DNA of 64,000 nucleotides, taken from the NCBI GenBank assembly GCA_046761045.1, contig JBHIFJ010000003.1:4835-68834 (forward strand), written 5' to 3'. The position numbers and the translations under genes are program-made. This DNA comes from Thermoplasmata archaeon. GTDB taxonomy: Archaea > Thermoplasmatota > Thermoplasmata > RBG-16-68-12 > JAGMCJ01. Below the pieces are notes generated by a model. The model saw nothing but the letters and a program-made list of their open reading frames with translations, was not told the DNA's origin and searched no databases. Positions 42,427-60,948 of this stretch are shown piece by piece. Position 1 is the stretch's first letter. Each line of letters begins with the position of its first letter.

Positions 42427-43635
42427 GTGATTCTCCCCACTGCATTATTGCCTGTTTCAGCACCGGCGGATAATCCTCTCCAGGTGAATCTATCTGCGAT
42501 TGTGTGCGGGGCGTCCTGTCACCAGGGAGAGCATCATCCCTACTATGATGAGTGGAGACTGAGCGGCCACGCAGACTCATTGGACAATCTCAGGTTCGCC
42601 ATCGGAGCGGCGGAGGATTCTTGCCTTGAGTGTCATTCTGCCGACTACATCCTCGCCAACGCCTCAAGCAAGCCTGCGCTCGAGACCGCCAAGTACGGAA
42701 TCACATGTGCGCTTTGCCATGACCCGCACAACGCACAGAATCCGAGACAACTCCGCTGGCCTTCTGACGAACTTTGTGCGAAGTGTCACAACCCGGAGGG
42801 AGCGCTTCCCGGAGATCCGATATATCACCCCCAATCATCGATGAGGGATGGCAGAAGCGGAGCTCCCATTCTGGGCGAACCCTTCATGCCGGACGTTGAG
42901 TGCGCTGATTGTCACATGTACCAGCCTAACATCACAGGACACAGTTTCAGACCGAAGGCTGAGGCCTGCGTCGGATGCCACAGCAACTACTCGATCGAAA
43001 CTGCAGAGACCCAGATTAGTGACTGGGGAACCCAGACGTGGACGGTGATTGTTGAAGTCCACGAGACAGTTGTGCTTTCCGAAAGAGCGATTGAGGATGC
43101 CCCAGGCTACGGGTTCTCAGACAGTACCATAGACATTGCCGTGGACCTCTGCAATGAGGCGAACTACTCGTTATCCTTCGTCGTCGCTGATGGTAGCGGC
43201 GGTGCCCATAATCCCGCCTTTGCTAGTGCGCTCCTGAACTTCTCTGAGGATAGAAGCTATGAACTCATTGCACTTCTTACTCCAGGAACTGTGAGAGGCA
43301 GAGTCGTCGATGCCGCCGGCACTCCAGTCGAGGGCGTCCTTATTGAAAAGGACGGAAAAGTGTGGGGGACATCAGAGGACAACGGAACATTCGAGTTCAG
43401 GTTTGCCCCCGGTACCCATTCTTTTGACCTGAAGCTAAAAGGGTCCTCTGTTGGAAGCATGGATTCAGTCGTTGTCGGAGGCCAGGTGGCAAACGTTGGT
43501 GACATCGTTGCGACAGGTGAGGATTTGGGGGCTCTGATCCTCCTGGCCGTTGGCATCATCATCCTCCTGTCGACCATTGTTGTATACTTGCTTTTCAGAC
43601 TCAGGAAGTTGGGATCCCACAGAGAGGAGGACTAG
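42427..43635 (+). CDS. Membrane-anchored multihaem cytochrome c with a CarboxypepD_reg-like beta domain
   Basis: Five CxxCH motifs are present (CLECH, CALCH, CAKCH, CADCH, CVGCH) plus one CxxxCH (CGASCH). A VRGRVVDAAGTPVEGV...DNGTFEF domain and a C-terminal TM helix follow. The start is GTG and the N-terminal signal is weak. Confidence 0.8.
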   Translation: MILPTALLPVSAPADNPLQVNLSAIVCGASCHQGEHHPYYDEWRLSGHADSLDNLRFAIGAAEDSCLECHSADYILANASSKPALETAKYGITCALCHDPHNAQNPRQLRWPSDELCAKCHNPEGALPGDPIYHPQSSMRDGRSGAPILGEPFMPDVECADCHMYQPNITGHSFRPKAEACVGCHSNYSIETAETQISDWGTQTWTVIVEVHETVVLSERAIEDAPGYGFSDSTIDIAVDLCNEANYSLSFVVADGSGGAHNPAFASALLNFSEDRSYELIALLTPGTVRGRVVDAAGTPVEGVLIEKDGKVWGTSEDNGTFEFRFAPGTHSFDLKLKGSSVGSMDSVVVGGQVANVGDIVATGEDLGALILLAVGIIILLSTIVVYLLFRLRKLGSHREED

Positions 43636-43761
43636 ATCTCAGTCTATGGGAGAGGAACAAGCGATTCTGATCGCCCCGAAGACTTCGATTGACACATTCT
43701 GGGGAAATCGAAAGCCCAGCCGTAGTGGCGTCATTCAACCAAGAGGAGAAGGACGCGTCCT

Positions 43762-43902
43762 TCAGGCAAGGAACCAGATTACAGAGGAAACTACAATGAT
43801 GAGGAGAATGACCACCAGTCGGATGAGTATGCTCAGATTCTGGTTTATTGCCTCGATTCCCTCCACGATTACAAGGTCCTTGTCCAATCCCCTATGAGTC
43901 AT
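43762..43902 (-). CDS. Small tail-anchored membrane protein (46 aa)
   Basis: This ORF is too short for the ORF track. It encodes MTHRGLDKDLVIVEGIEAINQNLSILIRLVVILLIIVVSSVIWFLA. GAAGGTGA lies 7 nt upstream of the ATG, and the ORF sits just downstream of tatA. Confidence 0.35.
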   Translation of the reverse strand: MTHRGLDKDLVIVEGIEAINQNLSILIRLVVILLIIVVSSVIWFLA

Positions 43903-43935: not shown

Positions 43936-44334
43936 TCACAGGCTCAGCTTTTCAGAGATTGACTTCCTCAGCTCGTCGACACCAGTGCCCTCGACATCCA
44001 AGCCAAGGGCTTTGGCAACCGCCACGACACCCTTCTTGTTTGCCAGGTCGACGGCATCCATTACTTCGATACTCAACTGATCGTCAGTCCTGCCCTTTGT
44101 GCTGATGTTGAGGGCCCTTGCAGCTCTCATCACCATAGATTCTCCGGGAATAGCCCCTCCACTCTCATATGATTGTCTCAATTCCCTTTCGATTTCCATC
44201 CTTCCTCTTCGAAACTCTCCCATCGCCTTTCCAAGTGCTCTGGCAAGTTCCGGAATCTTTCGTGCTCCAAAGAGGAGAACGAGCACAATGACTAAAAGGA
44301 CAACCACCTCGGGTCCAGGATCAAAGAGTCCCAT
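43936..44334 (-). CDS. tatA: Twin-arginine translocase TatA/E with an extended C-terminus
   Basis: The N-terminus LLVIVLVLLFGARKIPELARALGKAMGEFRRG is the canonical TatA TM helix, hinge and amphipathic helix. Confidence 0.8.
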   Translation of the reverse strand: MGLFDPGPEVVVLLVIVLVLLFGARKIPELARALGKAMGEFRRGRMEIERELRQSYESGGAIPGESMVMRAARALNISTKGRTDDQLSIEVMDAVDLANKKGVVAVAKALGLDVEGTGVDELRKSISEKLSL

Positions 44335-44393
44335 GTCAATACCTCCTTCTCTTCGAATCCATTCCGGTATTCAGTCCCATATGTCCACCCGTG

Positions 44394-45230
44394 CTACTGC
44401 CCCGAACCATTCTTCCCACCGCCTTTTTCCATTCTCACAGATAGAGAGTAGCCCAGAGCATAGAGAGCGAGCATGGGTAGTGATACCATCATCATGGTTA
44501 TTCCGCTCCCATCAGGAGTAATTACCGCACCAAAGATAAATATTGCTACTGCCGAGTATCTCCAGTTTCTCCTCCAGAAGCGCGCATCGACCACACCCAG
44601 AAACGTGATTCCACTCATTATGATTGGCAATTCGAAAGCAAGGCCGAAGGAAAAGAGGAAAAGGAGAGTGAAATCGACAAACTCTGATGGATTCAAATAC
44701 GTATTGTCCACGAGATTGAAGGCGATGGAATAAAGGAAGTCATATACGAAGGGGAGTACAAACATATAGGCAAAGACTGCACCTGTAATGAAAAGCAATG
44801 CAGAGGGAACGGAGATTTGCAGTAGAAGCCGTTTTTCTCTGCGCCTCAGAGCTGGCGCGAGGAACCTCCCCATCTGGTGGACGATTACGGGCATGGCGAA
44901 TAGAATCGAAAGAAACAGAGCGATTTTGAACTCGACAAGGATGGCATCCGTGGGACCCATAACAGCTGTTTCCACTCCTTCAGGTACGAGGTCAGCCTCC
45001 ATTTTTCCAAAGAACTGAATGGCAATTGGATGGAAGACATTCACGGTCGGGTAGACAACTGGGAGACCTAGGACTTGGGTTGTATCCGCTTCCACCAGAA
45101 TGAAGATAACAAAAAGGAGCATGATGACCGCCAATATCCTGAGGATTCTCTTTCTGAACTCGTCAAGATGGTCCAGGAACCCCATCTTTGCGCCTTCCTT
45201 CATATCTTCGACCCCGGCTCCAGCCTCCAC
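44394..45230 (-). CDS. tatC: Twin-arginine translocase TatC
   Basis: The FLDHLDEFRKRIL N-terminal motif is followed by six TM segments. Confidence 0.85.
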   Translation of the reverse strand: MEAGAGVEDMKEGAKMGFLDHLDEFRKRILRILAVIMLLFVIFILVEADTTQVLGLPVVYPTVNVFHPIAIQFFGKMEADLVPEGVETAVMGPTDAILVEFKIALFLSILFAMPVIVHQMGRFLAPALRRREKRLLLQISVPSALLFITGAVFAYMFVLPFVYDFLYSIAFNLVDNTYLNPSEFVDFTLLFLFSFGLAFELPIIMSGITFLGVVDARFWRRNWRYSAVAIFIFGAVITPDGSGITMMMVSLPMLALYALGYSLSVRMEKGGGKNGSGQ

Positions 45231-45512
45231 ACCCTAGCCCAGGCCCTCTGCGTCGTCTCAGCACGACCAAGGCGGCAGGCCGAATAATGAAAAGGATGAA
45301 TCCGATAAAAGACTGTTGGTTCGCTTCAAAGGATAGCCCTGGCGGTCGATGCGGGAGTCATCTCCTGAAGTATGTCTGAAAGGACGGCGAATGTTAATGT
45401 GGTTTGGAGCCTGTTCTTGCCAATCTAGGATTCCCTCCACCTAACCGGAGGACACAAATCCACTTCACAATCTCGATCCGACTGAGTGATCAAAACTGAG
45501 GAAGCCGACTTT

Positions 45513-46856
45513 CTACTGCTCACTTGTCTCAGCCGAGATTAGCACTTCTTCTGACACATGCTCATCAGCGGCTGGAGCCTCTGAGACCTCCCATACCGAA
45601 ATGATGGGGAAGATCTTCGTGAACAACAGAAAGAGAAATGCGAACCCCGCCAAGGCGCCAGCAGTTATCGACCATTCGACCCATGTTGGTACATACGATC
45701 CCCACATCATTCCAATCTGAGGCCGCGCTAGAGCTGGAACAGTGATTATGAAGCGTTTGATCCACATACCTATGTTTACAAGGACTGAGGCAAAGACGAC
45801 ACCGGTGATAGTTCTGGTTCTTGGTATGGCGAGGATGAAGGCAGGTATGACCAGCCCTCCTATCACGAAAGTCCAGAAGTAGAGCGCATATGAACCGCCA
45901 AAGATTGCCTCCAGTAATTCGGCTTCGCCTTCCATCCCCACATATCCAGAGGTCAAGTATTCGCTTACAGTGAAGTACATGTACGCAATGTTAAGTGTTA
46001 GGAGCATTAGTCCGAGGTACTGGAAGTGACGAGGCGTCAGGAAGTGCTCAAGGCCATAGACTTTGCGGAGTATTGCCATTGCGATGATTATCGATGCAAT
46101 GCCCGAGAAGATTGCACCGACAACGAAATAGGGCCCGAATATTGTGCTGTGCCAACCCGCTCTCGACGTCATTCCGAATATCCACGATACGACTGTGTGG
46201 ACGGAGACAGCGATAGGCACTATCAAAACTGCCATTATGCCTATTCCCCGTTCCAGTCTCTTCTTCTGTTCCTCAGTTGCTTTCCAATTCAGGGAAAGCA
46301 CACTGTAAAGTTTCATTCTCCAAGGAGAGACATTCTTCAACTTCTCCTTGCATCTCGCGAGATCTGGAATCATTGGAAGGTAGAGATAGATGATGCTCCC
46401 ACTAATGTAGGTCGCAATGGAGATGAAGTCCCAGAGGATTGCCGACTGCATTCTACCGAAGAGAAGGATATGATGCAGTCGGTCTGGGCGGCCCATGTCC
46501 ACGATGATCATGGAAGCACCTATGACGAGGGCAAAAACGGTGATGGCCTCCGCCATTCGGGTGATAGGCCTTCTCCACTCAGCCTTAGTGAGCCTCAGAA
46601 TCGCAGAGATGAGGGTTCCCGCATGACTTATTCCGATGAAGAAGACGAAGTTTGTGATGTACAAGCCCCAAATCACTATGTCCCACATCCCAGTAACCGC
46701 AAGACCTTCGGAGAGCTGGACATAGTACGCGTAGATGCCTATGGAGATAATCACGAGGAGGATTGCGAATGTTCCGTAGAACCCCCTTCCTGAGCCTATC
46801 AGGGGCCTGAAGATGATTTCTTCCATCTCGTCCTCAGTCAGGGAATCCTTGTCCAT
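45513..46856 (-). CDS. NrfD/PsrC-family quinone-interacting membrane subunit (10-helix type)
   Basis: The 447-aa product has about ten hydrophobic helices. Its N-terminal region (YGTFAILLVIISIGIYAYYVQLSEGLAVTGM...VIWGLYITNFVFFIGISHAGTLISAILRL) is typical of the NrfD family. Confidence 0.75.
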   Translation of the reverse strand: MDKDSLTEDEMEEIIFRPLIGSGRGFYGTFAILLVIISIGIYAYYVQLSEGLAVTGMWDIVIWGLYITNFVFFIGISHAGTLISAILRLTKAEWRRPITRMAEAITVFALVIGASMIIVDMGRPDRLHHILLFGRMQSAILWDFISIATYISGSIIYLYLPMIPDLARCKEKLKNVSPWRMKLYSVLSLNWKATEEQKKRLERGIGIMAVLIVPIAVSVHTVVSWIFGMTSRAGWHSTIFGPYFVVGAIFSGIASIIIAMAILRKVYGLEHFLTPRHFQYLGLMLLTLNIAYMYFTVSEYLTSGYVGMEGEAELLEAIFGGSYALYFWTFVIGGLVIPAFILAIPRTRTITGVVFASVLVNIGMWIKRFIITVPALARPQIGMMWGSYVPTWVEWSITAGALAGFAFLFLLFTKIFPIISVWEVSEAPAADEHVSEEVLISAETSEQ

Positions 46857-46868
46857 TTCTCACCAACT

Positions 46869-47630
46869 CTAGCTGCGGGGAAGGTAGTACACTCTTGGGT
46901 GCGTGCCAAACTCTTCTTTGAATCTGTAGGCATACCTCTCCTTGGTTACCTCTGAGACTCTCAAGAGATCCTGACCGTTCGACACGGCATCTTCAGCCAA
47001 GTCACCGTAGTATATCGCCCCTGAGGGACAACCAGAAACGCAAGGGGGAAGCAGCCCTTTCTCACCATGAGTTACACAGAAATCGCATTTCTCAACCACA
47101 CCTCTCTGGTGTGGCCAGGGCTCTTCCGGAGAGTACTCGTGTGACAGCTCCTCTGGAGTGTGTGGAGGCTCGCTCCAGTTGAAGTATCTAGCGGAATAGG
47201 GGCATGCGGTCATACAGTATCGACAACCTATGCACCTGTTGTGGTCTATGAGCACGATTCCGTCCTTCCTCCGGTATGTTGCGCCAACAGGACACACATT
47301 TCGGCAAGGAGGGTTCTCGCAATGCATGCAGGGTCTTGGGAAGTTGTAGGATGGCGCGAGGGGGTTGTCGCGTATTCTGTATACCTTGATCCACTCTTGG
47401 TTGAATGGAATGAAATGAGCATCTTGACAGGCTTTCGTGCAGGCACCGCATCCATCACACTTGTCCAGGTCGATGATCATCCCCCACTTCCTCTGTGAGA
47501 GCTCCCTTTCTGTCAATGCCTCAACGGATGGGAGAAGCCTTTGGAAGCCTGTGATGCCCAACAGGGAAGCACCGATTCCAGCCCCGGCGAGGCCTACTAT
47601 CTTGATGAAACGTCTTCTATCCATGCTCAT
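46869..47630 (-). CDS. Tat-exported 4x[Fe-S] subunit (NrfC/PsrB/DmsB/ActB2-like)
   Basis: I place the start at ATG 47630 (MSMDRRRFIKIVGLAGAGIGA, a twin-arginine signal), which overlaps the upstream stop as ATGA. Four Cys clusters are present (CDGCGACTKAC, CMHCENPPCRNVCP, CIGCRYCMTACP, CDFC..C..C). Confidence 0.85.
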   Translation of the reverse strand: MSMDRRRFIKIVGLAGAGIGASLLGITGFQRLLPSVEALTERELSQRKWGMIIDLDKCDGCGACTKACQDAHFIPFNQEWIKVYRIRDNPLAPSYNFPRPCMHCENPPCRNVCPVGATYRRKDGIVLIDHNRCIGCRYCMTACPYSARYFNWSEPPHTPEELSHEYSPEEPWPHQRGVVEKCDFCVTHGEKGLLPPCVSGCPSGAIYYGDLAEDAVSNGQDLLRVSEVTKERYAYRFKEEFGTHPRVYYLPRS

Positions 47631-48649
47631 GGTCTCCCTCGACTCGACTCTTCCTTTCCCGCTTTGGAGATTCGATGAAGTTGATATAGGACATAGGCGA
47701 AAGTCAGCCATACCCCCAGAACCACGCTTATGACAACAGCAACGATTTCAAGCGGCGCCCCGCCTATGAGAAGAGGTTGATCCTCCTCCGGTGCAAGAAT
47801 GCCTATTTCCGCGGTTGCGTTTGACGATTCCAGGAGGGACGTGCCCTCGAAATAGGCCTCCACTTCGAAGATTCCCCTTTCAGACGCCGAATCCAGATGA
47901 TATGCGTAGCCGTCATTGTCGGTTGCATTTGACCCTATTTGTAGCTTGCCGTATGTCGTCATCCTGAAGAAGATCACCTCAAAGCCCACTAGCGGGTCTC
48001 CCTCCATGTCTGTCAGCCTCGCGGAAATCGTGAATGATTCATCTCGCTGAACCTCTGCTGGAGCGACCAAGGTCATGTTTGTGGCCTCCTGGGGAAGACC
48101 AGTCACAACAAAGGTCAGGGCCTCGGCTTCTTCAAACCAAGGATCAGAGTTTCCGCCATGATGCACCCGAGCGGTCAGATTATAAGTCCCTCCACTGAAT
48201 GGAGCCAGCAAAAGCCATTCAAAGGAAACCGTCGAGCCCTCTCCGGGCGAAGTCTTCTTGACGTAGTTGTTTGTGGCACCGTTTGGATCCGTTACGATTC
48301 TCCATCCATCGGTTGACGGCTGATCAGAGTCGCTACCCGTCATGGATTTAAGGAGAAAGACACCGATTATCAGTTGGCTGGAAAGAAGATCCTCGGTCAC
48401 ATTGACGATTACGGTTACCTCCTCATTTGGCTCCGGAGTCAGAGTCGAGGCCCATATCTCCACAATGCCCGAACCTCTTCGGGGCTCCCCCGTATGGCAG
48501 ACGCATCCACCATAGCTGAATTTTCCGTCACCCGCACCTCCCGAAAAGCTACTAACCCCGCCAATGAGCAGAATCTGTACGACCACCAAGGCAAGAATGA
48601 CCAAAGCCGGAATCCTCTCCTTTCCCGTTCTTGAGCCTCTGAACGCCAT
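47627..48649 (-). CDS. Doubly anchored surface protein with a C-x-C-H motif and an Ig-like domain (function unknown); first large gene of the NrfCD operon
   Basis: The 340-aa product has an N-terminal TM helix, YGGCVCHTGEP, a beta-rich domain of about 150 aa, a Big_1-like block (FTISARLTDMEGDPLVGFEVIF...DNDGYAYH) and a C-terminal TM helix. Confidence 0.65.
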   Translation of the reverse strand: MAFRGSRTGKERIPALVILALVVVQILLIGGVSSFSGGAGDGKFSYGGCVCHTGEPRRGSGIVEIWASTLTPEPNEEVTVIVNVTEDLLSSQLIIGVFLLKSMTGSDSDQPSTDGWRIVTDPNGATNNYVKKTSPGEGSTVSFEWLLLAPFSGGTYNLTARVHHGGNSDPWFEEAEALTFVVTGLPQEATNMTLVAPAEVQRDESFTISARLTDMEGDPLVGFEVIFFRMTTYGKLQIGSNATDNDGYAYHLDSASERGIFEVEAYFEGTSLLESSNATAEIGILAPEEDQPLLIGGAPLEIVAVVISVVLGVWLTFAYVLYQLHRISKAGKEESSRGRP

Positions 48650-48697
48650 GAAGCTACTTCCTTTTCCAGCTAGATCCTGATTTCGTTGCCATCTCTC

Positions 48698-48817
48698 CTA
48701 TTCTTTTTTCTGGGAACCCCTTGTCCCGGTCTCAGCGTTGTCACTTCTGACCTCAGCCGTAAGCGCAATTAGCGCTACTGCGAAGAGGAATACAGCAAGA
48801 AGTACCGAAGCATTCAC
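48698..48817 (-). CDS. Possible single-TM micropeptide upstream of the NrfCD operon
   Basis: The reverse strand encodes (V)NASVLLAVFLFAVALIALTAEVRSDNAETGTRGSQKKE. Only GTG or CTG starts are available, and AGGAGG lies upstream. This ORF is not in the ORF track. Confidence 0.25.
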   Translation of the reverse strand: MNASVLLAVFLFAVALIALTAEVRSDNAETGTRGSQKKE

Positions 48818-48924
48818 TAGACTTCTAGTAGACAGACGAATGGACCTCCTTATAGTTGGGCAATTAACAGTGTTAAGATAAGAAGATATTTATCACTTGC
48901 GAATAGCTTTCTCAACAACTTGCG

Positions 48925-49470
48925 ATGTATCCGCCTCGTCCAAGCAACTTGGTTCTCCACACCTTTTTCGAGGACCAATCCTCTCTCTCATCGCATTCGG
49001 GAACCACTTCTAGCTATGTAGTCACAGTGACAGGCGGTCCATCGATTACATATGGATACTACGTCGTCTTCATCGATCCAGATGGCAGAAGCATAGACTC
49101 TCTGGGCAATCTCCTGTTCAATGTTGGGCCCAATTCCGTCACCAGGGTCGGAGAAACCAACACCTTCGTTGTTGAGTTTGAATCGCCCAGGTACGCAGTG
49201 GACCTGACCATGAAAGTCTCGGCGGTCTCTGCCGATAATAGTCTCAATCCTCTTGGGGATGGATGGAATTACACCACCAAGGAGGTTGGGGTTGAGTATC
49301 CAGTCAGTTCGGAGTTTCCAGGTCTTGACATATCATCATCGATTTATCTGATCGGGACATCCATACTGTCTCTTGGTCTCCTGTTTTGGCTCACTATCTT
49401 TTTCGTTGACAGAAAGATCAAGAAGGAGGTGGTTTACACTGGAAGAGAAGCTGAAGAAGGAAATGAGTAG
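48925..49470 (+). CDS. C-terminally anchored protein of unknown function; first gene of the Rieske/cyt b operon
   Basis: The 181-aa product has no N-terminal signal and a beta-rich body, and ends with one TM helix (IYLIGTSILSLGLLFWLTIFFV) and a short charged tail. Its stop overlaps the Rieske ATG (ATGAGTAG). Confidence 0.55.
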   Translation: MYPPRPSNLVLHTFFEDQSSLSSHSGTTSSYVVTVTGGPSITYGYYVVFIDPDGRSIDSLGNLLFNVGPNSVTRVGETNTFVVEFESPRYAVDLTMKVSAVSADNSLNPLGDGWNYTTKEVGVEYPVSSEFPGLDISSSIYLIGTSILSLGLLFWLTIFFVDRKIKKEVVYTGREAEEGNE

Positions 49471-50005
49471 AAGAGACTTCATCACGACGGCGGCCAAAGG
49501 AGCAGTCGTGGCAGGTCTCGGTCTTGCCTCAGTTGAGGCCGCCTATCTCTTTAGCTTCTTCGGAGCGACACCGGGCTTTATGCCCGATTGGAAGGGAGTT
49601 CTTCCCGAGCTGGACGGTGATGGCTTCTTGGTCTTCAAAGAGGTGTTTGTCACTGAGGATGAAGTCCTTGAGGTTATCGAAAAGACAGGTAGTTTCATTT
49701 TCCTCTTCCCCGGAGTGTTTCACGGAAGAAGTGAAACGCTTCCTGGGTTGGTGTCCAGGGACGGTGAGGGGATTTTGCATGCAGCATCCAGGAAGTGCAC
49801 GCATGAAGGATGCCTAGTGGACTTCCGAGACGATATTGTGGTCGGCTCGAAAAGCCTTCAGAAGATATGGTATTGTCGCTGCCACGATGCGGTGTTTGGC
49901 TCTCAAAACGGTGAGGTTCTGGCTGGTCCGCCTCCATCGTCGCTTCCCCAGTTTGACATAGAGATCATTGGCGATGGAGCAAAGATCAAGCTAGTTGAGC
50001 GGTGA
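49464..50005 (+). CDS. Rieske 2Fe-2S protein with a twin-arginine signal
   Basis: The N-terminus MSRRDFITTAAKGAVVAGLGLA is a Tat signal. Cluster box I is CTHEGC and box II is CRCHDAVF. Confidence 0.85.
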
Positions 50006-53135: not shown

Positions 53136-53809
53136 CTCTTGGCGCGTTGAGGATTGCGCAGAAGGATCTGAACATAGAACTGAGAACAAGGGAGAGGATG
53201 ACGTCCATGATTCTGCTGAGCCTAGTCATAGTCCTGTCCTTCAGGTTCGCCTTCTTCGGTTTCGATGTGGACCTCAGTGAAAGCCCTGAATTGGTGGCTC
53301 CCATTCTGTGGACGACGATATTCTTCGCGGGGGTCATGGGCCTGGAGTCCTCTTTCTCCTATGAGAAGGAAAACAAGTACCTTGATGGACTCCTTCTGCT
53401 TCCCACGAGCCGATATTCAATCTACCTGGGGAAGATGCTCTCCAACCTCTTGTTCCTGATTGCGATAGACATCGCGACGCTTATCTTCGTCGTCGCATTC
53501 TTCGCCTACGATCCTGGAGGCTCCTTCCTTGCCCTGTTCGGTGTCGTTCTCCTCGGGACCTTCAGCTTCGTCGCTATGGGCACTCTTGTCTCAGGTATGA
53601 CAATTAGCGCTAGGGCCCGCCAGGCTCTCCTCCAAATCGCGCTCATCCCGCTTATCGTCTTCACTATCGTAATCCCTGCCGTCGTGGCAACATCGAAGGT
53701 CGTGTTGGGAAGCGGCGACCTTGGGCCGGAACTCAGAATCTTGGGCGGGTTCGGGATACTAAGTCTGCTCCTTGCCTACGTCTTGTTTGGTTATCTTCTG
53801 GAGGGATAA
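53132..53809 (+). CDS. ccmB: Haem exporter membrane protein CcmB
   Basis: The 225-aa product has six TM helices and begins with the AQKDLNIELRTRE-type N-terminus typical of CcmB. Its start overlaps ccmA by 4 nt. Confidence 0.75.
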   Translation: MTLGALRIAQKDLNIELRTRERMTSMILLSLVIVLSFRFAFFGFDVDLSESPELVAPILWTTIFFAGVMGLESSFSYEKENKYLDGLLLLPTSRYSIYLGKMLSNLLFLIAIDIATLIFVVAFFAYDPGGSFLALFGVVLLGTFSFVAMGTLVSGMTISARARQALLQIALIPLIVFTIVIPAVVATSKVVLGSGDLGPELRILGGFGILSLLLAYVLFGYLLEG

Positions 53810-53810
53810 C

Positions 53811-54776
53811 ATGGAAAGAAGGAAGATGCTGGATCTTGTGATTGGGACTTTGGCCGTAGCTCTTGTGTGCGCGACCATCCTCGCGGCTTTCTACTACGCC
53901 CCACTTGAGCCCTTGGATGTATCTACCGTTAAATACAACGAATCAGACTACACAGACGGAGACATACGTGTGAAGGGAGTCGTTCAGAGCCTTTCCGGGA
54001 CTGACTTTTCCCTTAGGGATGTGACATCCAACGATACGCTGGACGTTTCCTATACTGGCTCGGACGACCTCGCCTCTCGGATTGCGAACGGAGACACTGT
54101 CTATGTCCTCGGAGAATATGAGCCAGGCGAAGGTCTGACAGTTAGGGAAGTGGAGATTGCGGATGACCCTGGCGAACCAGCAGGTTGGACATCGCCTTAC
54201 TCCGCGAAGATATTCTACCTTCACGTTCCTGCGGCGTGGACCTCATTCCTCGCCTTTGGCATCGTCCTCGTTGGCAGCGTAGTATATCTCTGGAGAGGTG
54301 ATCAGAAATGGGATATCTGGGCTCTTTCCTCGGCTGAAGTGGGACTGGTATTCTGCACGGTCGCTGTCATCTCTGGAGCCTTGTGGGCCAGGGCTGAGTG
54401 GGGCTACTACTGGAATTGGAGCGACACGAAGCTCTTTTCAACGTTTGTCCTATGGCTTGTGTTCATTGCGTACGTGGCCATAAGGAGCGGGGCGGTAAGG
54501 CATGAAAGCATACCACGGGTGGCCGCAATCTTCGGCATATTGGGATTCGCCGCTGTGCCCATATCATTCGTTTCATCAAGGATTTGGACAAGCATTCACC
54601 CCAATGTGATTGCCACATCTCAAGGCCATCTCTCTCCAGAAGCTGGGACGGTTCTGCTGCTGGGGGTTCTTGCCTTCACGTCCGTCTACGCGACACTTTT
54701 TTCTATGCGGACTGCAATAGAGAGGTCAGCGGTTGAGATTCAGAACCTAAAGGAGAAGTTGGAGGCGGGAGAATGA
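53811..54776 (+). CDS. ccmC: CcmC haem lyase/exporter with an OB-like insertion of about 90 aa in the first external loop
   Basis: The external His motif IFYLHVPAAW, the Trp-rich motif WGYYWNWSDTKL and a second external His (SIHPN) are present. The insertion lies between FYYAPLEP and the first His. Confidence 0.8.
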   Translation: MERRKMLDLVIGTLAVALVCATILAAFYYAPLEPLDVSTVKYNESDYTDGDIRVKGVVQSLSGTDFSLRDVTSNDTLDVSYTGSDDLASRIANGDTVYVLGEYEPGEGLTVREVEIADDPGEPAGWTSPYSAKIFYLHVPAAWTSFLAFGIVLVGSVVYLWRGDQKWDIWALSSAEVGLVFCTVAVISGALWARAEWGYYWNWSDTKLFSTFVLWLVFIAYVAIRSGAVRHESIPRVAAIFGILGFAAVPISFVSSRIWTSIHPNVIATSQGHLSPEAGTVLLLGVLAFTSVYATLFSMRTAIERSAVEIQNLKEKLEAGE

Positions 54777-54916
54777 TAGGCGTTGAGCAGTTCTACTGGG
54801 CCTACCTAATCATCTGGGCCGGAATCGTCCTCTATGTGCTATTTCTCACTCATAAGCAGAGCAAGATAGAGGAAGAGATCGACTTACTCAAGGAGGTCAT
54901 GGAAAGTGGAAAGTGA
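54773..54916 (+). CDS. ccmD: CcmD-like small membrane protein (47 aa)
   Basis: This ORF is too short for the ORF track. Its ATG overlaps the ccmC stop (ATGA). It encodes MIGVEQFYWAYLIIWAGIVLYVLFLTHKQSKIEEEIDLLKEVMESGK, a single TM helix plus a charged tail. It sits between ccmC and ccmE. Confidence 0.6.
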   Translation: MIGVEQFYWAYLIIWAGIVLYVLFLTHKQSKIEEEIDLLKEVMESGK

Positions 54917-55304
54917 GGAACCGGGGAAGCCGAAATATGGGGCCAAGAAGAAGCTGGTTCTCCAGATCGTCGCCGTCCTCGCGATTATTGTCGTCCTTGT
55001 CGTGATTTTCTTGAGTTCCGCGCCAGCTGACCCCTACGACACGGTAGGCATGGTGATGTCCAATCCATCGAAATACGTCAATGAGAATGTGGAAGTCAGA
55101 GGGAGAGTTGAGGCCTGGTCTCCTTCCTACAGAACATTCAACCTGACAGGGGACGGCGAAACAGTGGCTGTCAGCTATGACGTTCTTCCTGATGCATTCG
55201 CAAACGGGAAGGATGTCGTGGTCAAGGGCTTGTTTCACCACAATGGAATCACCTATCAGATAGATGCGAGCGATATCATAGTTGGGTGCTCATCGAGATA
55301 CTGA
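54906..55304 (+). CDS. ccmE: CcmE haem chaperone, archaeal variant with a C-x-x-x-Y haem-binding motif
   Basis: The product has an N-terminal TM anchor and an OB-fold body (VEVRGRVEAW...FNLTGDGETVAVSYDVLPDAFANGKDVVVKG). The C-terminal motif is VGCSSRY in place of HxxxY. The start is GTG. Confidence 0.8.
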   Translation: MESEEPGKPKYGAKKKLVLQIVAVLAIIVVLVVIFLSSAPADPYDTVGMVMSNPSKYVNENVEVRGRVEAWSPSYRTFNLTGDGETVAVSYDVLPDAFANGKDVVVKGLFHHNGITYQIDASDIIVGCSSRY

Positions 55305-55327
55305 GGATCACGGGATTGGGCGGTGGC

Positions 55328-55963
55328 ATGAGAAGAATCGCCTTGACTGCTGTTGTCCTTCTTGGATTGGGCCTGGTTCTCCTTCTCTCCCTTGACTTCT
55401 ACGTTGCTGAAACGGCCTCCGCTGCCGATTTCACGGTCATGGACATCGATGGCAACGATTTTACTCTCTCTGATAACAGGGGCAAGATCGTCCTTCTGGA
55501 GTTCATGACCATCGATTGCCCGTCATGCGCGGACCAGACGGAGAAACTCAAGCCTGTGAGGGAGAAGTATGACGAGACAGAAGTCATCATTATCTCATTG
55601 AGTGTCAGTCCCCTTGACAACGCCAGCACTCTGCAGGACTATCGAAACGCTCACCAAGCTGACTGGATGTTCGCGGCGGACGTCGAGGACGTCGCCTACT
55701 CCTATGGCGTTGACTCGGTGCCACATATGTGCATAATCAGCGGTGACGGCAGAATAGCATCCACCTATTCGGGCCCGCCCTTGGGTGCAGATGAGGTTTC
55801 CAGCAGAATCGACCAAGCGATTTTCTTGACAGACCCGGTGAGAACGATTGCCTTGCCCGTGCTCTCTCTCGGTCTGATATTGGCGGCGCTCTGCCTGCTC
55901 ATCTTTCTTGGCTACACGAAGAGGAGCATCATAAAGGAGCAACTGTTCGGCGGAGCCAAGTAA
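55328..55963 (+). CDS. Membrane-anchored thioredoxin-like protein (CcmG/TlpA/ResA-like)
   Basis: An N-terminal TM helix is followed by a thioredoxin fold with the active site CPSC (LLEFMTIDCPSCADQ). A C-terminal TM helix is also present. Confidence 0.75.
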   Translation: MRRIALTAVVLLGLGLVLLLSLDFYVAETASAADFTVMDIDGNDFTLSDNRGKIVLLEFMTIDCPSCADQTEKLKPVREKYDETEVIIISLSVSPLDNASTLQDYRNAHQADWMFAADVEDVAYSYGVDSVPHMCIISGDGRIASTYSGPPLGADEVSSRIDQAIFLTDPVRTIALPVLSLGLILAALCLLIFLGYTKRSIIKEQLFGGAK

Positions 55964-55964
55964 C

Positions 55965-56192: not shown

Positions 56193-56279
56193 CGCCTCTC
56201 CTCCCTACTAGCGGTTTCCACCTCCAAGAACATCAGTTGCCTCTTCTGTCTTCCACCAAGCCTGTCAACGTTGTAGAAG

Positions 56280-56525
56280 ATGGTTGCGACTGAGTATACC
56301 AGCACTGCGGTTGCGCACAAGCTCATTCGCATCATCTACTCCATGATGATCGAGAGGAAGGAGTACGAGCATCTGACTGAGAGGAATGTTATGAAGAAGA
56401 AGCAGGCAATGAGGCGGAGGTCCTCCAAGGTGAGGGAACGGGATCTCTCCTCCACTATCGGGAACTTCACCCCGGAGGTCCTCGACAAGATTAAGAAGGA
56501 GGTTGCGTTATCTTCAATGGCATAA
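56280..56525 (+). pseudogene. C-terminal fragment of an IS110-family-like transposase
   Basis: The fragment ATEYTSTAVAHKLIRIIYSMMIERKEYEH resembles the conserved ..A(I/V)VA.ARKL..I(I/V)(Y/W).ML.. C-terminal helix of IS110-type transposases. An in-frame stop lies 2 codons upstream of its ATG, and no catalytic N-terminal part is present. Confidence 0.4.
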
Positions 56526-56729
56526 GGGTTTTTCAGAGGAGTGACAGGAGACACAGTCATCGTCTCTCGTGCCAAAGAAATCGTTGGACGCGTCCGTTCC
56601 TCCAATGCTGGGCTCGGTCTTCACATGGGCATAGGCCATCAAGAGGATGAATGCGGCAAGGCATGCGATGAGGAACCTCGTCCATGGGGTTCCTCTCATG
56701 CTTCTCAAGGACCTTGACATTCCACCCAT
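56514..56729 (-). pseudogene. Truncated membrane-anchored c-type cytochrome (NapC/NrfH-like N-terminus)
   Basis: The 71-aa product has a TM helix (WTRFLIACLAAFILLMAYA), then DDDCVSCHSSEKPLCH-stop. The ORF ends 10 residues after its only CxxCH motif and abuts the transposase fragment. Confidence 0.4.
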
Positions 56730-56779: not shown

Positions 56780-58267
56780 CTAGCCCTTTCTCTGATCGAG
56801 TCTCTTCATTATTTCTATGGCCCGCTTCTTGTAATCCCCGACCAACTTCTCGTAGACGCTCTCAGAAACCTCTCCATCGTCCCTTTTCTTCTGAATTTCC
56901 TTTATCGCCCTCAGCAACTTCTGCTTTTCATCCTTGAGGGCCACTAGCTCTGGATCCTCGCCTGTTTCCTCCACTTCCTTCAGCTCCGATTCGTACTTGC
57001 CTTTCAGGTCTTCATAGAACTTCTCAGAAATGTGACCCGCAGAGAAGGCCGCTTCCGCCTCCTCAAGTGCCGCCAGTATCTCATCCCTCCTCGCCTCGCT
57101 AGGGCCATTGCCCTCATCCTCCTCACGTGTCTCCTTTCTTTTCTTCATCATCAGGGCAACGAGGAGGACGGTTACGACGAGCAGTGCAATCCCCGAGACT
57201 ACCAGCAGGGAGAGATTCTCCGCTTCCTCCCCCCACTCAATGATTACCTGCATACTTTCCCCTGCCTCAAGGGCTCCAACTATGACATGGAAGTCCACTT
57301 CACCTTGGTTGTGCTCCCAGTGCACGAAGTCCGCGGGAGGAGTTATATCTGTCCCCTCGTTTGTGAACAGCCACAGACTGTATTCTGTCACGTTGTATAG
57401 GACGGTCTTATTGAATATCATTGATTTTTTGATGTCACCCCTTGCCTCCAAGCTGAGGCGATATGGTATCTCAATGACCGTCTTGTACGGCGGCAGCCCC
57501 ACGACAAGCTTGAAGGATTTCGTCTCATACGCCTGCAATGTCGTGTTGTCGATTTCTGATCCGTTGTCATAGATGTGCGCGGTCCAATTCGTCGGTAGGC
57601 CTTTCACCGACAAGAAAATCGTCTGATTCCACGATTCTTCGTTTGTGACGTTTATCGTCTGGTTGGTCAATATCATCTCTGGAATCACGCTCTGAGACCG
57701 AATTCGTGTATCCATGCGTTCTTGGTCTGCCCACACCGTCACCCCGTGTCCCCCTTGAACCGAGGTCCTTGTCTCGTTTTCCAGCCCAACCGTGATGTTG
57801 ATCGGGATGGAATGCCAGGAGGAGCCGTTCGCGTTGGAGGCATTGAGCTGAAGAAACGCTTCCTGTCCGAAATAGGAGAGCATCTCTCCTTCGCTGAATG
57901 GGGTGAAGGAAATCACATCCTCATCAGATGCCAATCGGATAAACGAAAAGCATCTGAGATCTGATCCGTCAACCACTTTCACGACCATGCCCGCAGGATT
58001 CGGACACATCGACGAGAGCACAAGAGCCGATTGGGGCAGCCACGAATAGAGGGTTCCATTGAATGGTGAGTTTCCGCTGTTGTTGAAGTATATCCTTTCC
58101 GTTATTCCGAAGGTTGTGTAATCAGAGGCCTGTTCCATGTTGATTGCGTACACATCAGTCTCGAAGCCACGAGTTTCAACGCCGTTTGCCGTTGCATTAC
58201 TGATTGTGGGGAGGGCAAGAACGGAAGTGATGCATAGCAAGGCATAGAGAGGGGTCTTTCCTTTCAT
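56780..58267 (-). CDS. Sequon-rich surface protein with a TM anchor and a cytoplasmic tail carrying two SHOCT-like repeats; coupled to ccmF
   Basis: The product has a signal peptide, an ectodomain of about 340 aa with many N-x-S/T sequons, and a TM helix. The tail contains GHISEKFYEDLKGKYE and GEVSESVYEKLVGDYK. Its ATG overlaps the ccmF stop (ATGA). Confidence 0.6.
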   Translation of the reverse strand: MKGKTPLYALLCITSVLALPTISNATANGVETRGFETDVYAINMEQASDYTTFGITERIYFNNSGNSPFNGTLYSWLPQSALVLSSMCPNPAGMVVKVVDGSDLRCFSFIRLASDEDVISFTPFSEGEMLSYFGQEAFLQLNASNANGSSWHSIPINITVGLENETRTSVQGGHGVTVWADQERMDTRIRSQSVIPEMILTNQTINVTNEESWNQTIFLSVKGLPTNWTAHIYDNGSEIDNTTLQAYETKSFKLVVGLPPYKTVIEIPYRLSLEARGDIKKSMIFNKTVLYNVTEYSLWLFTNEGTDITPPADFVHWEHNQGEVDFHVIVGALEAGESMQVIIEWGEEAENLSLLVVSGIALLVVTVLLVALMMKKRKETREEDEGNGPSEARRDEILAALEEAEAAFSAGHISEKFYEDLKGKYESELKEVEETGEDPELVALKDEKQKLLRAIKEIQKKRDDGEVSESVYEKLVGDYKKRAIEIMKRLDQRKG

Positions 58268-60948
58268 TGGGCGTCCTCCAGCATTTGAATCTCTCTTTTC
58301 AGAGCCTCTTCATACTCCTCGTCCGTCCTCGGCGGCTTCTCACGTATTGTCACATCCTTCTCTCTCACTGGATAGAAGTCAGATACTGTTCGTGCGGATA
58401 TTCCGGTTGCCATTATCCAGACACCACTCCAGACGAGTCCAGTCAGCGGTATGAGTTCCACGCTGATCTGAATAGCACTAACGCTTGAACTTATGAACTT
58501 TTCGAAGTTGTTCCTTTCGGCATTCGCAAACACCCACCCATCATCAATCGTAAAGAAGCCGATGACGATGAAGTAGATGTCGATGGCATGTTCAGAGTGA
58601 ACGAACACCTCGGACATGTAGCGTCCGGTAGTGCCCACATCGAATTCCGACCATGTCATTCTTAGAACAGCTGAACCTATCGGACCGCTCGGGTCAGATA
58701 TTCTGAGACTCACTTCTACAGTCTCGTACAGAGGGTCTGTGTCCGAACTCACTCCGCTTGATCCTGCGATTTCGAATGTGTATCCCTCGTTCGTATCCAG
58801 GGTCCAGCCAGTGAATAGCTGCTCATTCTCGTAGGTCATTGGCAGGAATGTGCTTGCAGCATATCCAATGATAAGCAGAGCGGCCCCCAAATGTATGAGA
58901 TGAGCGCCTGCTGTCACCAAAGGCTTTCGCACTGTCCGTCTCCAAGATGATGATTCAGGGAAGTCATTGCGATTCCGCAGGGTGAGCGCAAGAGCAATCG
59001 CGGAGAGAACCAGGCCTGCCATGAATCCAATTGAGGCCAGACCAAGAACCCCACCCAGAAGGGCTAGACGGAAGTCCCCTCCCCTCAATGTGCTGATGCC
59101 AGCCACAAATGGCACAATCGAAGCCAGGAAGCCCATGAGAAGCATTGGGAGGCTTGTGTGAAAGCTCAACGGACCAAACCAGATCCTCGAGGGCCCGGAT
59201 CCCCACATGACCATTCCCAGGATGGATGAGAATATAAGCAACAATCCAGCGAGCTTCAGATTCTTGCTTGTACCCTTCTTCGAGGAAATCTTCGCTATCT
59301 TGTATCCTGCAGTTGCCAAGATTCCCAGTGAGACTGGAATGTAGACAAAGAAGTACCGATTGGCGAAGATGACGAATCCAAACACAGTCGTGGCGACAAT
59401 CAGACCGATAACATAGAACGAGAACCCCGGGCTCACGTGCCCCCAAGAGAGGCAAAGTATGAGGACAGCACCGAGGGGTATCAGAAGTAGTGGCAGACGC
59501 GACTCGAAACTCTCCGGCTTCAAGCCGTTTATGCCCTGCATCATGAGGAGAAAGGTCGCCACGAACCAGACCGAGAGAATCAGAACCGTGATTATCATCC
59601 ATGTGTCCATGGACAGAATAGGGGCCTTCTCTTCCTTGTTCCGTTCTGCGTCCGTCTCTGAGGTCATAACCACCCAGATGAACGGGCCGCCGATGAGCAA
59701 GAAGAGGAGAACTGCAATTCCGAGCAATATGTTGCCAAGACCTATCATCCTGGAAATCTCGAAGAAGGCTGAAAGGGTGTCCGTTACACGAAAGGCGATT
59801 GGTGCGAGCAGCAAGCCGAAGATGACCAGATAGGTGTAGCCAACGATTCTCGACCTCCCTCCCTTCCTTCTTGTTCTGAGAAATCGCCACAGGAAGAATA
59901 TCATTCCAATCAGCAGCGTGAAGAGCATTATGGAGATGAAGAAGGTGCTTTCCTGTGATGCATTGAGGACGAAGATCAGCTTGTCCGCAGGATCAAAGGG
60001 AATGCCCTCCGAGCCTCCAGCGAAGGCGTGGATAGAGTCCACGAAGCCGCTCCTTGTCTCGAAGGTTGTGAACAGCACAAGTGTGAAGCTGAGGATTCCG
60101 AGCAATGGGGCTAGATCCCTATACGATCCCTTTCTCCGGTTCCAGAACACCGCGTGCAAAAACGCCGTAAGCGAAATCCACGGAAGGAGGTTGGCGGTCT
60201 CCACAGGATCCCATCCCCAATACCCGCCCCAGCCCAGGACGATGTAAGCCCAAAGAGCACCGATGATGATGCCGAGAGTCATGAACAACCATGAGATGCG
60301 ACCGAACAAGAGCGCATCGAAGGTCCATCTCTCATCATCGGACGCGAGGAGGGCAATGGCCGCCGAAAATGGAATGCTGCAAAAAGCGTAGGCGGCGAAC
60401 TCGATGGGAGGATGGACGACCATGAGCGGTGTCACAAGAAGCGGATTCAGACCCCTTCCTTGTGGCCAACTGATCAGACTCGCTATGGATGTCGGTGCGA
60501 ACATCTCCAGTCTGAGTATGATGACAACAAACAGGACGAGGATGACCGCTTCCATCAAGAACATCCAATCCTGGAACCTGTCTGAGCTGCGTTTCTTTTT
60601 CGATCTCAGATTCCATGCGCTCACTTGAAGAAAGAGGAACAGAGCCAGGAAGAAGGTCCAGAGAAACACTGACCCTTTTCCTCCCGCCCAAACGCCTGCG
60701 AGCTTGTAGAACCATTCGTAGTCTGTTGATGAGTGAGAGTGCACGTATTCGATGGTCATGTCAGAGGACAGGAAGTCGTAGACCAGGAGGAAGAATGAGA
60801 AGGACACAAACAGGAAGGCGAGGAATGCCAGGATCCAAAGGACCTTCGCCTCTATTTCTAGGATTCCGAGCATCTTGAGGACCGTGAGGACCACGGCAAG
60901 AATCCCGACCGCAAAAGCCACCCACAGCAGAACATCGCCGACATGCAT
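58264..60948 (-). CDS. ccmF: Cytochrome c haem lyase CcmF (with CcmF_C-like extension)
   Basis: The 894-aa polytopic product carries the Trp-rich motif GWGGYWGWDPVE. The C-terminal region is soluble plus one TM helix. Confidence 0.85.
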   Translation of the reverse strand: MHVGDVLLWVAFAVGILAVVLTVLKMLGILEIEAKVLWILAFLAFLFVSFSFFLLVYDFLSSDMTIEYVHSHSSTDYEWFYKLAGVWAGGKGSVFLWTFFLALFLFLQVSAWNLRSKKKRSSDRFQDWMFLMEAVILVLFVVIILRLEMFAPTSIASLISWPQGRGLNPLLVTPLMVVHPPIEFAAYAFCSIPFSAAIALLASDDERWTFDALLFGRISWLFMTLGIIIGALWAYIVLGWGGYWGWDPVETANLLPWISLTAFLHAVFWNRRKGSYRDLAPLLGILSFTLVLFTTFETRSGFVDSIHAFAGGSEGIPFDPADKLIFVLNASQESTFFISIMLFTLLIGMIFFLWRFLRTRRKGGRSRIVGYTYLVIFGLLLAPIAFRVTDTLSAFFEISRMIGLGNILLGIAVLLFLLIGGPFIWVVMTSETDAERNKEEKAPILSMDTWMIITVLILSVWFVATFLLMMQGINGLKPESFESRLPLLLIPLGAVLILCLSWGHVSPGFSFYVIGLIVATTVFGFVIFANRYFFVYIPVSLGILATAGYKIAKISSKKGTSKNLKLAGLLLIFSSILGMVMWGSGPSRIWFGPLSFHTSLPMLLMGFLASIVPFVAGISTLRGGDFRLALLGGVLGLASIGFMAGLVLSAIALALTLRNRNDFPESSSWRRTVRKPLVTAGAHLIHLGAALLIIGYAASTFLPMTYENEQLFTGWTLDTNEGYTFEIAGSSGVSSDTDPLYETVEVSLRISDPSGPIGSAVLRMTWSEFDVGTTGRYMSEVFVHSEHAIDIYFIVIGFFTIDDGWVFANAERNNFEKFISSSVSAIQISVELIPLTGLVWSGVWIMATGISARTVSDFYPVREKDVTIREKPPRTDEEYEEALKREIQMLEDAQ

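Follow-up and report, generated by a model that had tools for sequence, protein, structure and literature searches.

OcwA of Thermincola potens is a nine-haem cell-surface reductase. Its hemes 1-4 can be overlaid on those of cytochrome c554 and its hemes 5-9 on those of NrfA, and hemes 2 and 5, each situated below a His-His motif, are five-coordinate (PMC6703420; PMC9250108). OcwA and OmhA of Carboxydothermus ferrireducens function as outward reductases in extracellular electron transfer (PMC6703420; PMC7829351). A gene of this type, flanked by modules resembling the Nrf system, alternative complex III (ACIII) and cytochrome b6f complexes, is found in a stretch of DNA from a Thermoplasmata archaeon (NCBI GenBank assembly GCA_046761045.1, contig JBHIFJ010000003.1). 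The window, i.e. the whole stretch analysed, measures 64,000 nt out of the 89.9 kb of the contig. The block of interest, at 42427-60948, had been described in an earlier note, made from the sequence alone, as a compact cytochrome c electron-transport set with no obvious endpoint. Every multihaem cytochrome gene expected at the locus is deleted or truncated, and the quinol modules and the cytochrome c maturation (ccm) genes are intact. The block probably derives by reduction from a respiratory supercluster rich in multihaem cytochromes, which resides in a clade of uncultured Thermoplasmata, the absence of an endpoint being the result of loss. A literature search retrieved no paper describing this cluster type in Thermoplasmata.

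Genes were assigned by profile searches (Pfam and NCBIfam), and structure-linked searches were carried out by PDB sequence search (phmmer) and by Foldseek on AlphaFold2 (AF2) models. Profile searches confirmed the gene inventory given in the earlier note as regards TatA, TatC, the iron-sulfur (FeS) protein, NrfD, the Rieske protein, the split cytochrome b and the Ccm genes. The layout was checked by comparing the window with Logan assemblies from four other sequencing runs. These are 99.95-100% identical to the window and collinear with it across 40535-62521, an interval spanning all three deletion scars described below, with 2-3 mismatches per 6-14.5 kb and zero gaps. Because four independent assemblies reproduce it, the layout of the window is real. 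Searches with proteins encoded at the window ends, meant to reach beyond them, led to short contigs only.

The multihaem cytochrome gene

The first gene of the block (42427-43635, plus strand) encodes in 402 codons five CxxCH motifs and one CGASCH motif, a CarboxypepD_reg-like beta domain and a C-terminal transmembrane (TM) anchor helix, in agreement with the membrane-anchored 5-6 haem cytochrome of the earlier note. In the PDB search the best match is OcwA (6i5b, E 1.5e-29), followed by OmhA (6qvm, E 1e-11) and by octahaem nitrite reductase (ONR) and NrfA entries (E 1e-6 or weaker). The AF2 model (pLDDT 84) gives the same ranking in Foldseek, with OcwA on top (E 1.6e-12, TMq 0.49) and NrfA and octahaem nitrite reductases at E about 1e-7. 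The protein also passes the Pfam PF02335 model (44.4 bits versus a cut-off of 24.1), matching profile positions 244-373 of 438 only, and relatives are labelled NrfA by the annotation pipeline PGAP. CxxCK is absent from the window cytochrome, and an NCBIfam scan returned no NrfA model at E <= 1e-3. The Pfam match, the name given to the relatives and the OcwA/OmhA/NrfA-like fold run counter to the claim that the window holds no NrfA-type catalytic subunit. Judged by sequence and modelled fold, the cytochrome belongs to the NrfA superfamily, and its nearest kin are OcwA and OmhA rather than NrfA, ONR or hydroxylamine oxidoreductase (HAO). Since its best solved relatives are surface terminal reductases, this multihaem cytochrome family would itself be the endpoint class of the block. 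Delivery of electrons to an external acceptor, as had been proposed, fits a gene family of the OcwA/OmhA type; the premise that no endpoint class is present was wrong.

Close homologues (55-69% identity, 520-547 aa) all belong to metagenome-assembled genomes (MAGs) labelled Thermoplasmata, "Methanomassiliicoccales" or Thermoplasmatota. Distant members measure up to about 590 aa, and identity ranges from 40 to 69% across the 520-590-aa set. According to record titles, relatives derive from marine sediment, cold-seep and vent metagenomes. Orthologues carry nine haem motifs, 8 CxxCH and 1 C-X3-CH, and the full-length orthologue has a Pfam c554 domain at the N-terminus. As in OcwA (6I5B) and OmhA (6QVM), a c554-like module is thus combined with an NrfA-like pentahaem core featuring a three-helix bundle. 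The distal-His motifs of OcwA haems 2 and 5, whose His residues face the two open haems without ligating them (PMC6703420; PMC9250108), align with EHHPYY and xHPQSSMR, both conserved in the archaeal family. The HH pair (H36 and H37 in the window copy) and H134 are conserved, and correspond to H281/H282 and H380/H381 of OcwA; the first His of the second pair is not, the residue matching H380 being a Tyr that varies in the family. Haem 2, faced by the HH pair, is missing in the window copy. The family differs from OcwA and OmhA by its archaeal host, an identity of 29%, the C-X3-CH motif at haem 4, and the addition of the CarboxypepD_reg-like domain and the C-terminal TM anchor; the window copy differs further in having haems 4-9 only and no signal anchor. 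A surface location of the archaeal orthologues is predicted from their C-terminal TM anchor and N-terminal signal anchor. One distant member, P0037 (585 aa, JGI), features CASCK, an NrfA-like Lys motif, at the fourth of eight motifs, which suggests that true nitrite-reductase-like enzymes may exist among the relatives.

The signal anchor and haems 1-3, corresponding to about 125 N-terminal residues, are present in 27/27 true homologues and missing from the window copy, whose similarity to the homologues begins about 20 residues before haem 4. The copy has 6 motifs only because haems 1-3 have been deleted. DNA alignment to the syntenic related locus L001 shows that about 390 nt are missing, right after the gene for a DUF6125 protein (41731-42417, plus strand; Pfam DUF6125 E 4e-41). 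This gene is directly upstream of the cytochrome and serves as synteny anchor, since L001, L011 and L102 have it ahead of their full-length cytochrome too. A tblastn search with the missing N-terminus found no match across the 64-kb window, which rules out that a haem 1-3 module is encoded elsewhere in it. The earlier note took this gene for the sole c-type cytochrome that is complete; its 5' end is in fact truncated. A second natural short form, P0033 (414 aa), was dismissed as a start-codon miscall, as the frame runs upstream into a signal anchor and three haems.

The DUF6125 and cytochrome genes are in one frame, parted at 42415-42427 by TAG and three more codons. Methanomassiliicoccales, a label borne by some of the relatives, are known for pyrrolysine. 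Read-through of the TAG codon by pyrrolysine was rejected as functionally meaningless, because DUF6125 is a separate cytoplasmic protein, terminated in the relatives by TAA and a spacer.

Quinol modules and deletion scars

A full 9-haem cytochrome leads each quinol module in at least 12 related loci. In L005, L085 and L088 it is followed by a p340-like protein and by the FeS gene, where L088 ends. The operon goes on with NrfD, a MobB-like protein, TatC and TatA in L005, L085 and L087; in the latter the upstream cytochrome is represented by its C-terminal end only, at the contig edge. L092, from the same run series as the window contig, encodes a p340 protein 79% identical to that of the window, with the cytochrome directly upstream. 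Genes for a 9-haem cytochrome, p334 and p220 come ahead of the Rieske operon in L005, L008/L085, L009, L010 and L096-L099. L001/L006 and L102/L103 are syntenic with the window over long distances (about 70% protein identity); here the thioredoxin gene and ccmF are separated by genes for p118, a second cytochrome b and a 12-haem cytochrome. No conventional terminal enzyme was found in the window or within the 20-kb surroundings of about 12 related loci, where the modules are always accompanied by OcwA-type cytochromes. No catalytic subunit of the Mo/W-bis(pyranopterin guanine dinucleotide) type resides by the FeS/NrfD genes in the block or in 12 related loci. The MobB-domain/FeS protein located between NrfD and TatC (L085, 13247-13957; L005, 14478-15203; L087, 4090-4836) is absent from the window; the clusters that carry it include no molybdoenzyme.

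The minus-strand module of the window (43936-48649) retains p340, FeS, NrfD, TatC and TatA genes intact, and misses the leading 9-haem cytochrome. The p340 gene (47627-48649) is the first of the operon. Its stop codon overlaps by 4 nt the FeS gene (46869-47630), which encodes a four-cluster ferredoxin (NrfC/DsrO/ActB2-like) of 253 aa, exported by twin-arginine translocation (Tat) as marked by the signal MSMDRRRF; the start is fixed by 77% identity to a 253-aa L085 protein. The ferredoxin passes the NCBIfam DsrO model (210.6 versus a cut-off of 200 bits), matches the PDB NrfC/PsrB chain 2vpw_B (E 7.5e-34), and aligns with the C-terminal domain of ActB (residues 788-952 of 1039, E 1e-28). The next gene (45513-46856) encodes a membrane quinol-interacting subunit of the NrfD family, 447 aa long (Pfam NrfD E 9e-37; 74% identity to L085 NrfD). 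It is of the ActC type, since the entire protein can be aligned to the ActC chains 6f0k_C, 6btm_C, 6lod_C and 8k9e_C (E 1e-62 to 1.5e-68). TatC (44394-45203; Pfam TatC E 9e-54) measures 269 aa in independent assemblies, and TatA (43936-44334; Pfam TatA_B_E E 3.5e-14) is 75% identical to the L011 copy.

The gene order in the relatives, i.e. NrfA-superfamily cytochrome, p340 as relay candidate, NrfC-like FeS protein and NrfD, is that of E. coli nrfABCD; export of the FeS protein by Tat and the Pfam NrfA match are further shared traits. In contrast to E. coli, there is no CxxCK haem and no match to the NCBIfam NrfA equivalog, NrfD is of the longer ActC type, and p340 lacks the five haems of NrfB; the window has lost the gene in nrfA position. 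Similarity to ACIII is denoted by the full-length ActC match (E 1.5e-68), the alignment of the FeS protein to the ActB C-terminal domain, and the logic by which electrons would pass from quinol to FeS clusters and to c-haems at the outer face. Unlike ACIII, the module features no molybdopterin-like ActB1, no second NrfD-like subunit ActF, and no pentahaem ActA, ActD or monohaem ActE; the window has a single NrfD-family gene. Among components of DsrMKJOP, the DsrO model is passed but that of DsrP is not (130 versus 350 bits), and no homologues of DsrM, DsrK and DsrJ reside in the window. The Mo/W catalytic subunit of the complex iron-sulfur molybdoenzymes Psr, Ttr, Arr and Dms has no counterpart in the block.

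The p340 and Rieske operons are arranged head to head. The 275-nt spacer between them (48650-48924) is the putative junction of a second deletion, as relatives carry here one or two multihaem cytochrome genes and p334. No cytochrome remnant was detected in the spacer by tblastn with L085 proteins, no repeats occur in it, and independent assemblies give it with an identical sequence. A motif scan and tblastn with L085 proteins identified no multihaem sequence in the window beyond the truncated cytochrome and the 71-aa stub described below. Mobile-element or repeat scars were also looked for at the junctions and discarded, as the 16-31-nt matches observed are merely at chance level.

The plus-strand module opens with a truncated gene unlisted in the earlier note, encoding p181 (48925-49470). 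This 181-aa protein is a homologue of p220, with 52-59% identity from residue 64 on. It lacks p220 residues 1-63, and with them the signal peptide and the C-X5-7-CH motif (ETCG..CHG), both present in 8/8 orthologues. The 9-haem cytochrome and p334, which lead the module in relatives, are absent. The gene for the Rieske [2Fe-2S] protein (49463-50005, plus strand) features a twin-arginine signal, SRRDFI, and CTHEGC and CRCH boxes (Pfam Rieske 30.8 versus a cut-off of 20.3 bits). Cytochrome b is split. The N-terminal half is of the b6 type (50010-50735, plus strand; Pfam Cytochrome_B E 4e-50; NCBIfam cytochrome b6 and ExtP models, 231-236 bits), with four haem-ligand His residues (H-x13-H and H-x14-H), the YCLGG cysteine of haem ci and the C-terminus RKHGIAGPL. 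The C-terminal part, or subunit IV (50747-51196, plus strand; Pfam Cytochrom_B_C E 8e-11), features the Qo motif PEWY. It is followed on the same strand by two small membrane proteins of 96 and 101 aa (51208-51796), provided with TM helices and 60% and 45% identical to L085 p96 and p104, which are probably accessory subunits.

The Tat-dependent Rieske protein, split cytochrome b, b6-type His spacing, haem-ci Cys and PEWY motif are all present, as in cytochrome b6f and in the menaquinol:cytochrome c reductase of Firmicute type. The position taken in these complexes by cytochrome f, c1 or a dihaem cytochrome c is occupied in the relatives by p220 (C-X5-7-CH), p334 and the nine-haem cytochrome; no c-type subunit (f, c1 or dihaem c) accepting electrons from the Rieske centre was found in the window. 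The nearest published analogue is the Rieske/cytochrome b cluster of Ca. Methanoperedens, in which pentahaem cytochromes are encoded within the operon, as multihaem cytochromes are in the relatives (PMC4683180). The block resembles an Nrf or ACIII module plus a b6-type complex feeding OcwA-type reductases, without belonging fully to any of these families.

The third scar lies between the thioredoxin gene and ccmF. A 71-aa stub (56514-56729, minus strand), also overlooked in the earlier note, consists of the signal anchor and first CVSCH motif of the 12-haem cytochrome; it matches residues 12-67 of the L001 protein MHC311 (tblastn, E 2.8e-8), with DFFGTRDDDCVSCH in common. The C-terminal 33 codons of p94, a small membrane protein in relatives, are left at 56216-56314 (minus strand; tblastn with L001 p94 residues 54-86, 67% identity, E 1.7e-10). 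The rest of the 12-haem gene, cytochrome b 251 and p118 are absent, and about 2 kb have been deleted between the stub and the p94 remnant.

Since intact relatives carry the cytochromes and the window has three scars, the missing endpoint denotes gene loss, not a new design. The block is a reduced derivative rather than a compact design.

Cytochrome c maturation genes and the p340 domain

The maturation genes make up an archaeal variant of System I, with CcmABC, a CxxxY CcmE, a CcmF with WWD motif and no CcmH. CcmA, CcmB and CcmC (52392-54776, plus strand; Pfam ABC_tran, CcmB and Cytochrom_C_asm) share 74-84% identity with their L001 counterparts, and CcmC features the motif WGYYWNW. CcmE, which ends in CSSRY (Pfam CcmE E 3.5e-9), and a membrane-anchored thioredoxin-like protein with a CPSC motif (AhpC-TSA/Redoxin E 2e-13) are encoded at 54906-55963 (plus strand). 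CcmF (58264-60948, minus strand) is a single fused haem lyase of 894 aa (Pfam Cytochrom_C_asm E 3e-26; NCBIfam NrfE/CcmF E 7e-50) with the motif WGGYWGWD. Pfam searches detected no CcmH among the proteins of the block. The streamlined archaeal System I, CcmABCEF (PMC9084895), shares with this set CcmA, CcmB, CcmC, the CxxxY CcmE and the lack of CcmH. The set differs in that CcmF is fused and not split, an ORF is found in CcmD position, CcmC carries an insert of the OB type, and p495 is associated with CcmF.

The ORF in question (54773-54916, plus strand), located between ccmC and ccmE, encodes 47 aa with a single TM helix, and has 47-48-aa counterparts in L001 and L102. The earlier assignment to CcmD is upheld by size, TM helix and position but not by Pfam, whose CcmD model gave no match; archaeal Ccm systems are reportedly devoid of CcmD (PMC9084895). 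The OB insert spans residues about 45-130 of CcmC (53811-54776, plus strand). Over 76 aa it is 33% identical to the OB fold of the adjacent CcmE (E 3e-7 in pairwise comparison; Pfam CcmE E 0.01), and it lacks the haem-binding C-terminus; CcmC proteins of relatives are likewise long (321-328 aa).

The gene for p495 (56780-58267, minus strand) encodes an exported, TM-anchored protein of 495 aa, 42% identical to L001 p520, with a tail forming a charged coiled coil and numerous N-x-S/T sequons. The start of the gene and the stop codon of ccmF overlap as ATGA, and p495 adjoins ccmF in all relatives seen (L001, L007-L009, L102). No family match was found for p495, which could be a stand-in for the missing CcmH/I. 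A small helix-turn-helix protein is encoded divergently from ccmA (51803-52180, minus strand), and the gene is in the same position in L001 and L102. Its description as an XRE-type regulator is borderline, the HTH_3 score of 22.5 bits being just below the Pfam cut-off of 23.

The CVCH motif of p340 had also passed unnoticed. The AF2 model of the protein comprises an N-terminal TM helix, a disordered loop carrying the motif, two beta-sandwich domains and a C-terminal TM helix. Soon after the signal anchor, p340 and its paralogues share an invariant Cys-Xn-Cys-His, made in p340 by C49, C51 and H52; in relatives p340 always follows a multihaem cytochrome. A full scan of 1.8 billion representative proteins sorted 135 clusters into the p340 family. 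The spacing of the cysteines varies among the 116 members covering the motif position. C-X3-CH is found in 61, the canonical C-X2-CH in 15, C-X-CH in 11, C-X4-CH in 6 and C-X5-CH in 1; the remaining 22 have one Cys or none. The His residue is always right after the second Cys, and a downstream xHG is mostly kept, a pattern that would suit a haem-c site of variable spacing. Distant members reside on contigs of only 1-2 kb. The family is widespread and exported (P0084-P0217), and 20/30 of its small members match the NCBIfam model "choice-of-anchor V".

Searches of the PDB by sequence and profile revealed no solved structure related to the p340 domain, and the fold search gave generic immunoglobulin-like matches only, with the motif loop modelled at pLDDT < 50. 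A literature search for haem in choice-of-anchor domains found nothing relevant. To our knowledge, haem c attachment at a C-X-CH spacing is unreported. By motif conservation, AF2 model and synteny, p340 is a candidate haem-c electron relay in NrfB position. It is conceivable, and proposed here tentatively, that the N-terminal domain of p340 and of its paralogue p220 identifies an unrecognised group of beta-sandwich monohaem c-type cytochromes, with Cys-Cys spacings of 1-7; these would be the electron-output subunits of the NrfD/FeS module, in NrfB position, and of the Rieske/b6 module, in cytochrome f/c1 position, in Thermoplasmata.

The remaining genes of the window are housekeeping genes, except for a tungstopterin aldehyde:ferredoxin oxidoreductase (3737-5593, minus strand). 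The statement that the window contains no molybdopterin enzyme has therefore to be amended, though this protein is cytoplasmic, not respiratory, and 38 kb away from the block. Together with an adjacent 4Fe-4S protein gene it covers 3737-6039 (minus strand), and it is unrelated to the cytochrome block. Profile searches agree with the earlier note that no haem-copper oxidase or hydrogenase is encoded in the window, and found in it no respiratory Mo enzyme. An ABC-transporter permease of 1102 aa (13159-16467, plus strand), part of a peptide-uptake operon, has an unusual architecture, with a large Kelch/beta-propeller insert (Pfam E 1e-50) before the BPD_transp_1 domain.

Probable gene loss and alternative explanations

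In the intact form of the cluster, quinol would be oxidised by the ActC-type NrfD with the Tat-exported ferredoxin, and by the Tat-Rieske/split b6 complex. The OcwA-type nine-haem cytochrome heading each operon would be held at the outer face of the membrane by its C-terminal helix, followed in the gene order by one or two small C-Xn-CH beta-sandwich proteins (p340, p220). Haem would be attached by the archaeal-type System I (CcmABC, CxxxY CcmE, fused CcmF, no CcmH). Electrons from quinol would enter NrfD and the FeS protein, or the Qo site and the Rieske protein, move to p340 or p220, the positional analogues of NrfB and cytochrome f/c1, and reach the nine-haem cytochrome of what would be a single-membrane cell. 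The latter would act as terminal reductase for an acceptor at or outside the cell surface, such as metal oxides, humics, and possibly small N-oxides at the two open haem sites. In the window, one deletion has deprived the cytochrome by DUF6125 of the signal anchor and haems 1-3. Another has removed the cytochromes heading both quinol-module operons, plus the 5' end of the p220 homologue, and a third has cut the 12-haem cytochrome with its cytochrome b partner to a stub. The chain at the locus is most likely broken, or reliant on cytochromes encoded elsewhere.

Several observations weigh against this explanation. Both quinol modules and the whole ccm set remain intact, with high conservation (74-84% identity), which would not be expected of a dead pathway. 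The truncated cytochrome gene retains an open 402-codon frame and every family-invariant residue, and relative-rate tests with seven orthologues and three outgroups revealed no rate acceleration (all chi-square < 3.84); either the deletion is recent, or the remainder may still be under selection. The new N-terminus, MILPTALLPVSA, is moderately hydrophobic and could provide a weak signal peptide. Intact cytochromes or a conventional terminal enzyme may also be encoded elsewhere, the 64 kb in view being a part of the genome, and the acceptor assigned to the archaeal cytochrome family is suggested by analogy.

Some of these data would suit a block that works as it is, the six-haem protein left over, with haem 4 and the pentahaem core resembling NrfA, being exported via its new hydrophobic N-terminus and acting as a pruned terminal reductase fed by NrfD/FeS, in a minimal Nrf-like system. 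The open frame, the invariant residues, the even rate of change and the intact ccm genes are in line with such an enzyme. The part retained is the entire core equivalent to NrfA, in which OcwA haem 5 and the His distal to it are comprised, and evolution by pruning of haem modules has been documented for the superfamily (PMC9250108). The N-terminus, however, has no positively charged n-region, and no well-placed ribosome-binding site precedes the gene, the sole Shine-Dalgarno-like stretch, GGGGAG, being about 19 nt upstream of the GTG start. The six-haem form is unique among about 60 family sequences, and p340, which always comes after the cytochrome in relatives, is here on the other strand, 4 kb off. 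Loss of two more cytochrome genes and truncation of p220 at the same locus argue for decay rather than redesign. A working pruned reductase is thus unlikely, and the truncated gene is, on balance, expected to be non-functional. In the present data, a deletion of recent date would look the same as a six-haem protein that is pruned yet functional. A slightly lower probability is assigned to a scheme in which local cytochromes are dispensable and the quinol modules feed, via p340 or another carrier, a terminal enzyme of conventional type whose genes lie outside the window (e.g. haem-copper or bd oxidase, nitrate reductase or another reductase). The intact and conserved Rieske/b6 and NrfD/FeS genes would fit, as would the fact that 64 kb of the 89.9-kb contig are in view, and the Methanoperedens Rieske/cytochrome b cluster with its multihaem cytochromes has been proposed to feed nitrate reductase (PMC4683180). 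The lack of any such enzyme in the window and in the related neighbourhoods speaks against it, and the Rieske module is also short of an intact p220 in cytochrome f/c1 position.

Multihaem conduits, like NrfD or bc-type modules, can in principle run in either direction, as known for Qrc, ACIII and bc complexes. Electrons might therefore flow inward, at least in the intact relatives, the surface cytochromes taking them from Fe(II), a cathodic mineral or a syntrophic partner to the quinone pool. The marine sediment, cold-seep and vent origin of the relatives would suit this direction, of which the sequence carries no indication; OcwA and OmhA are outward reductases (PMC6703420, PMC7829351), and inward flow is deemed improbable. 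The least credible explanation is that the truncations are artefacts of assembly or binning. A metagenome contig may raise the suspicion, and the truncated protein is on a single contig in the protein table, but the Logan assemblies of four runs show the same sequence and order over the three scars. Loss of the cytochromes from a once complete supercluster stays the favoured reading.

What looked like a respiratory chain without endpoint is, if the favoured reading holds, a chain with its endpoints deleted, and calls for caution in metabolic inference from MAGs. The deletions form a natural series (from 9 to 6 haems, and from 12 to 1 haem), a live example of the "pruning" proposed for the cytochrome superfamily. 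The interest rests less on the reduced copy in the window than on the intact cluster type and on the C-Xn-CH domain. If the p340 domain does bind haem, p340 would be the sole intact Ccm substrate at the locus in the present genome, and the C-Xn-CH beta-sandwich family would widen the range of haem-c attachment motifs handled by System I. The intact cluster brings to uncultured Thermoplasmata the OcwA-type nine-haem cytochromes, hitherto characterised only in Gram-positive iron reducers. Wired to both ActC/NrfC-type and b6-type quinol modules, these cytochromes provide a testable gene set for extracellular electron transfer in the phylum.

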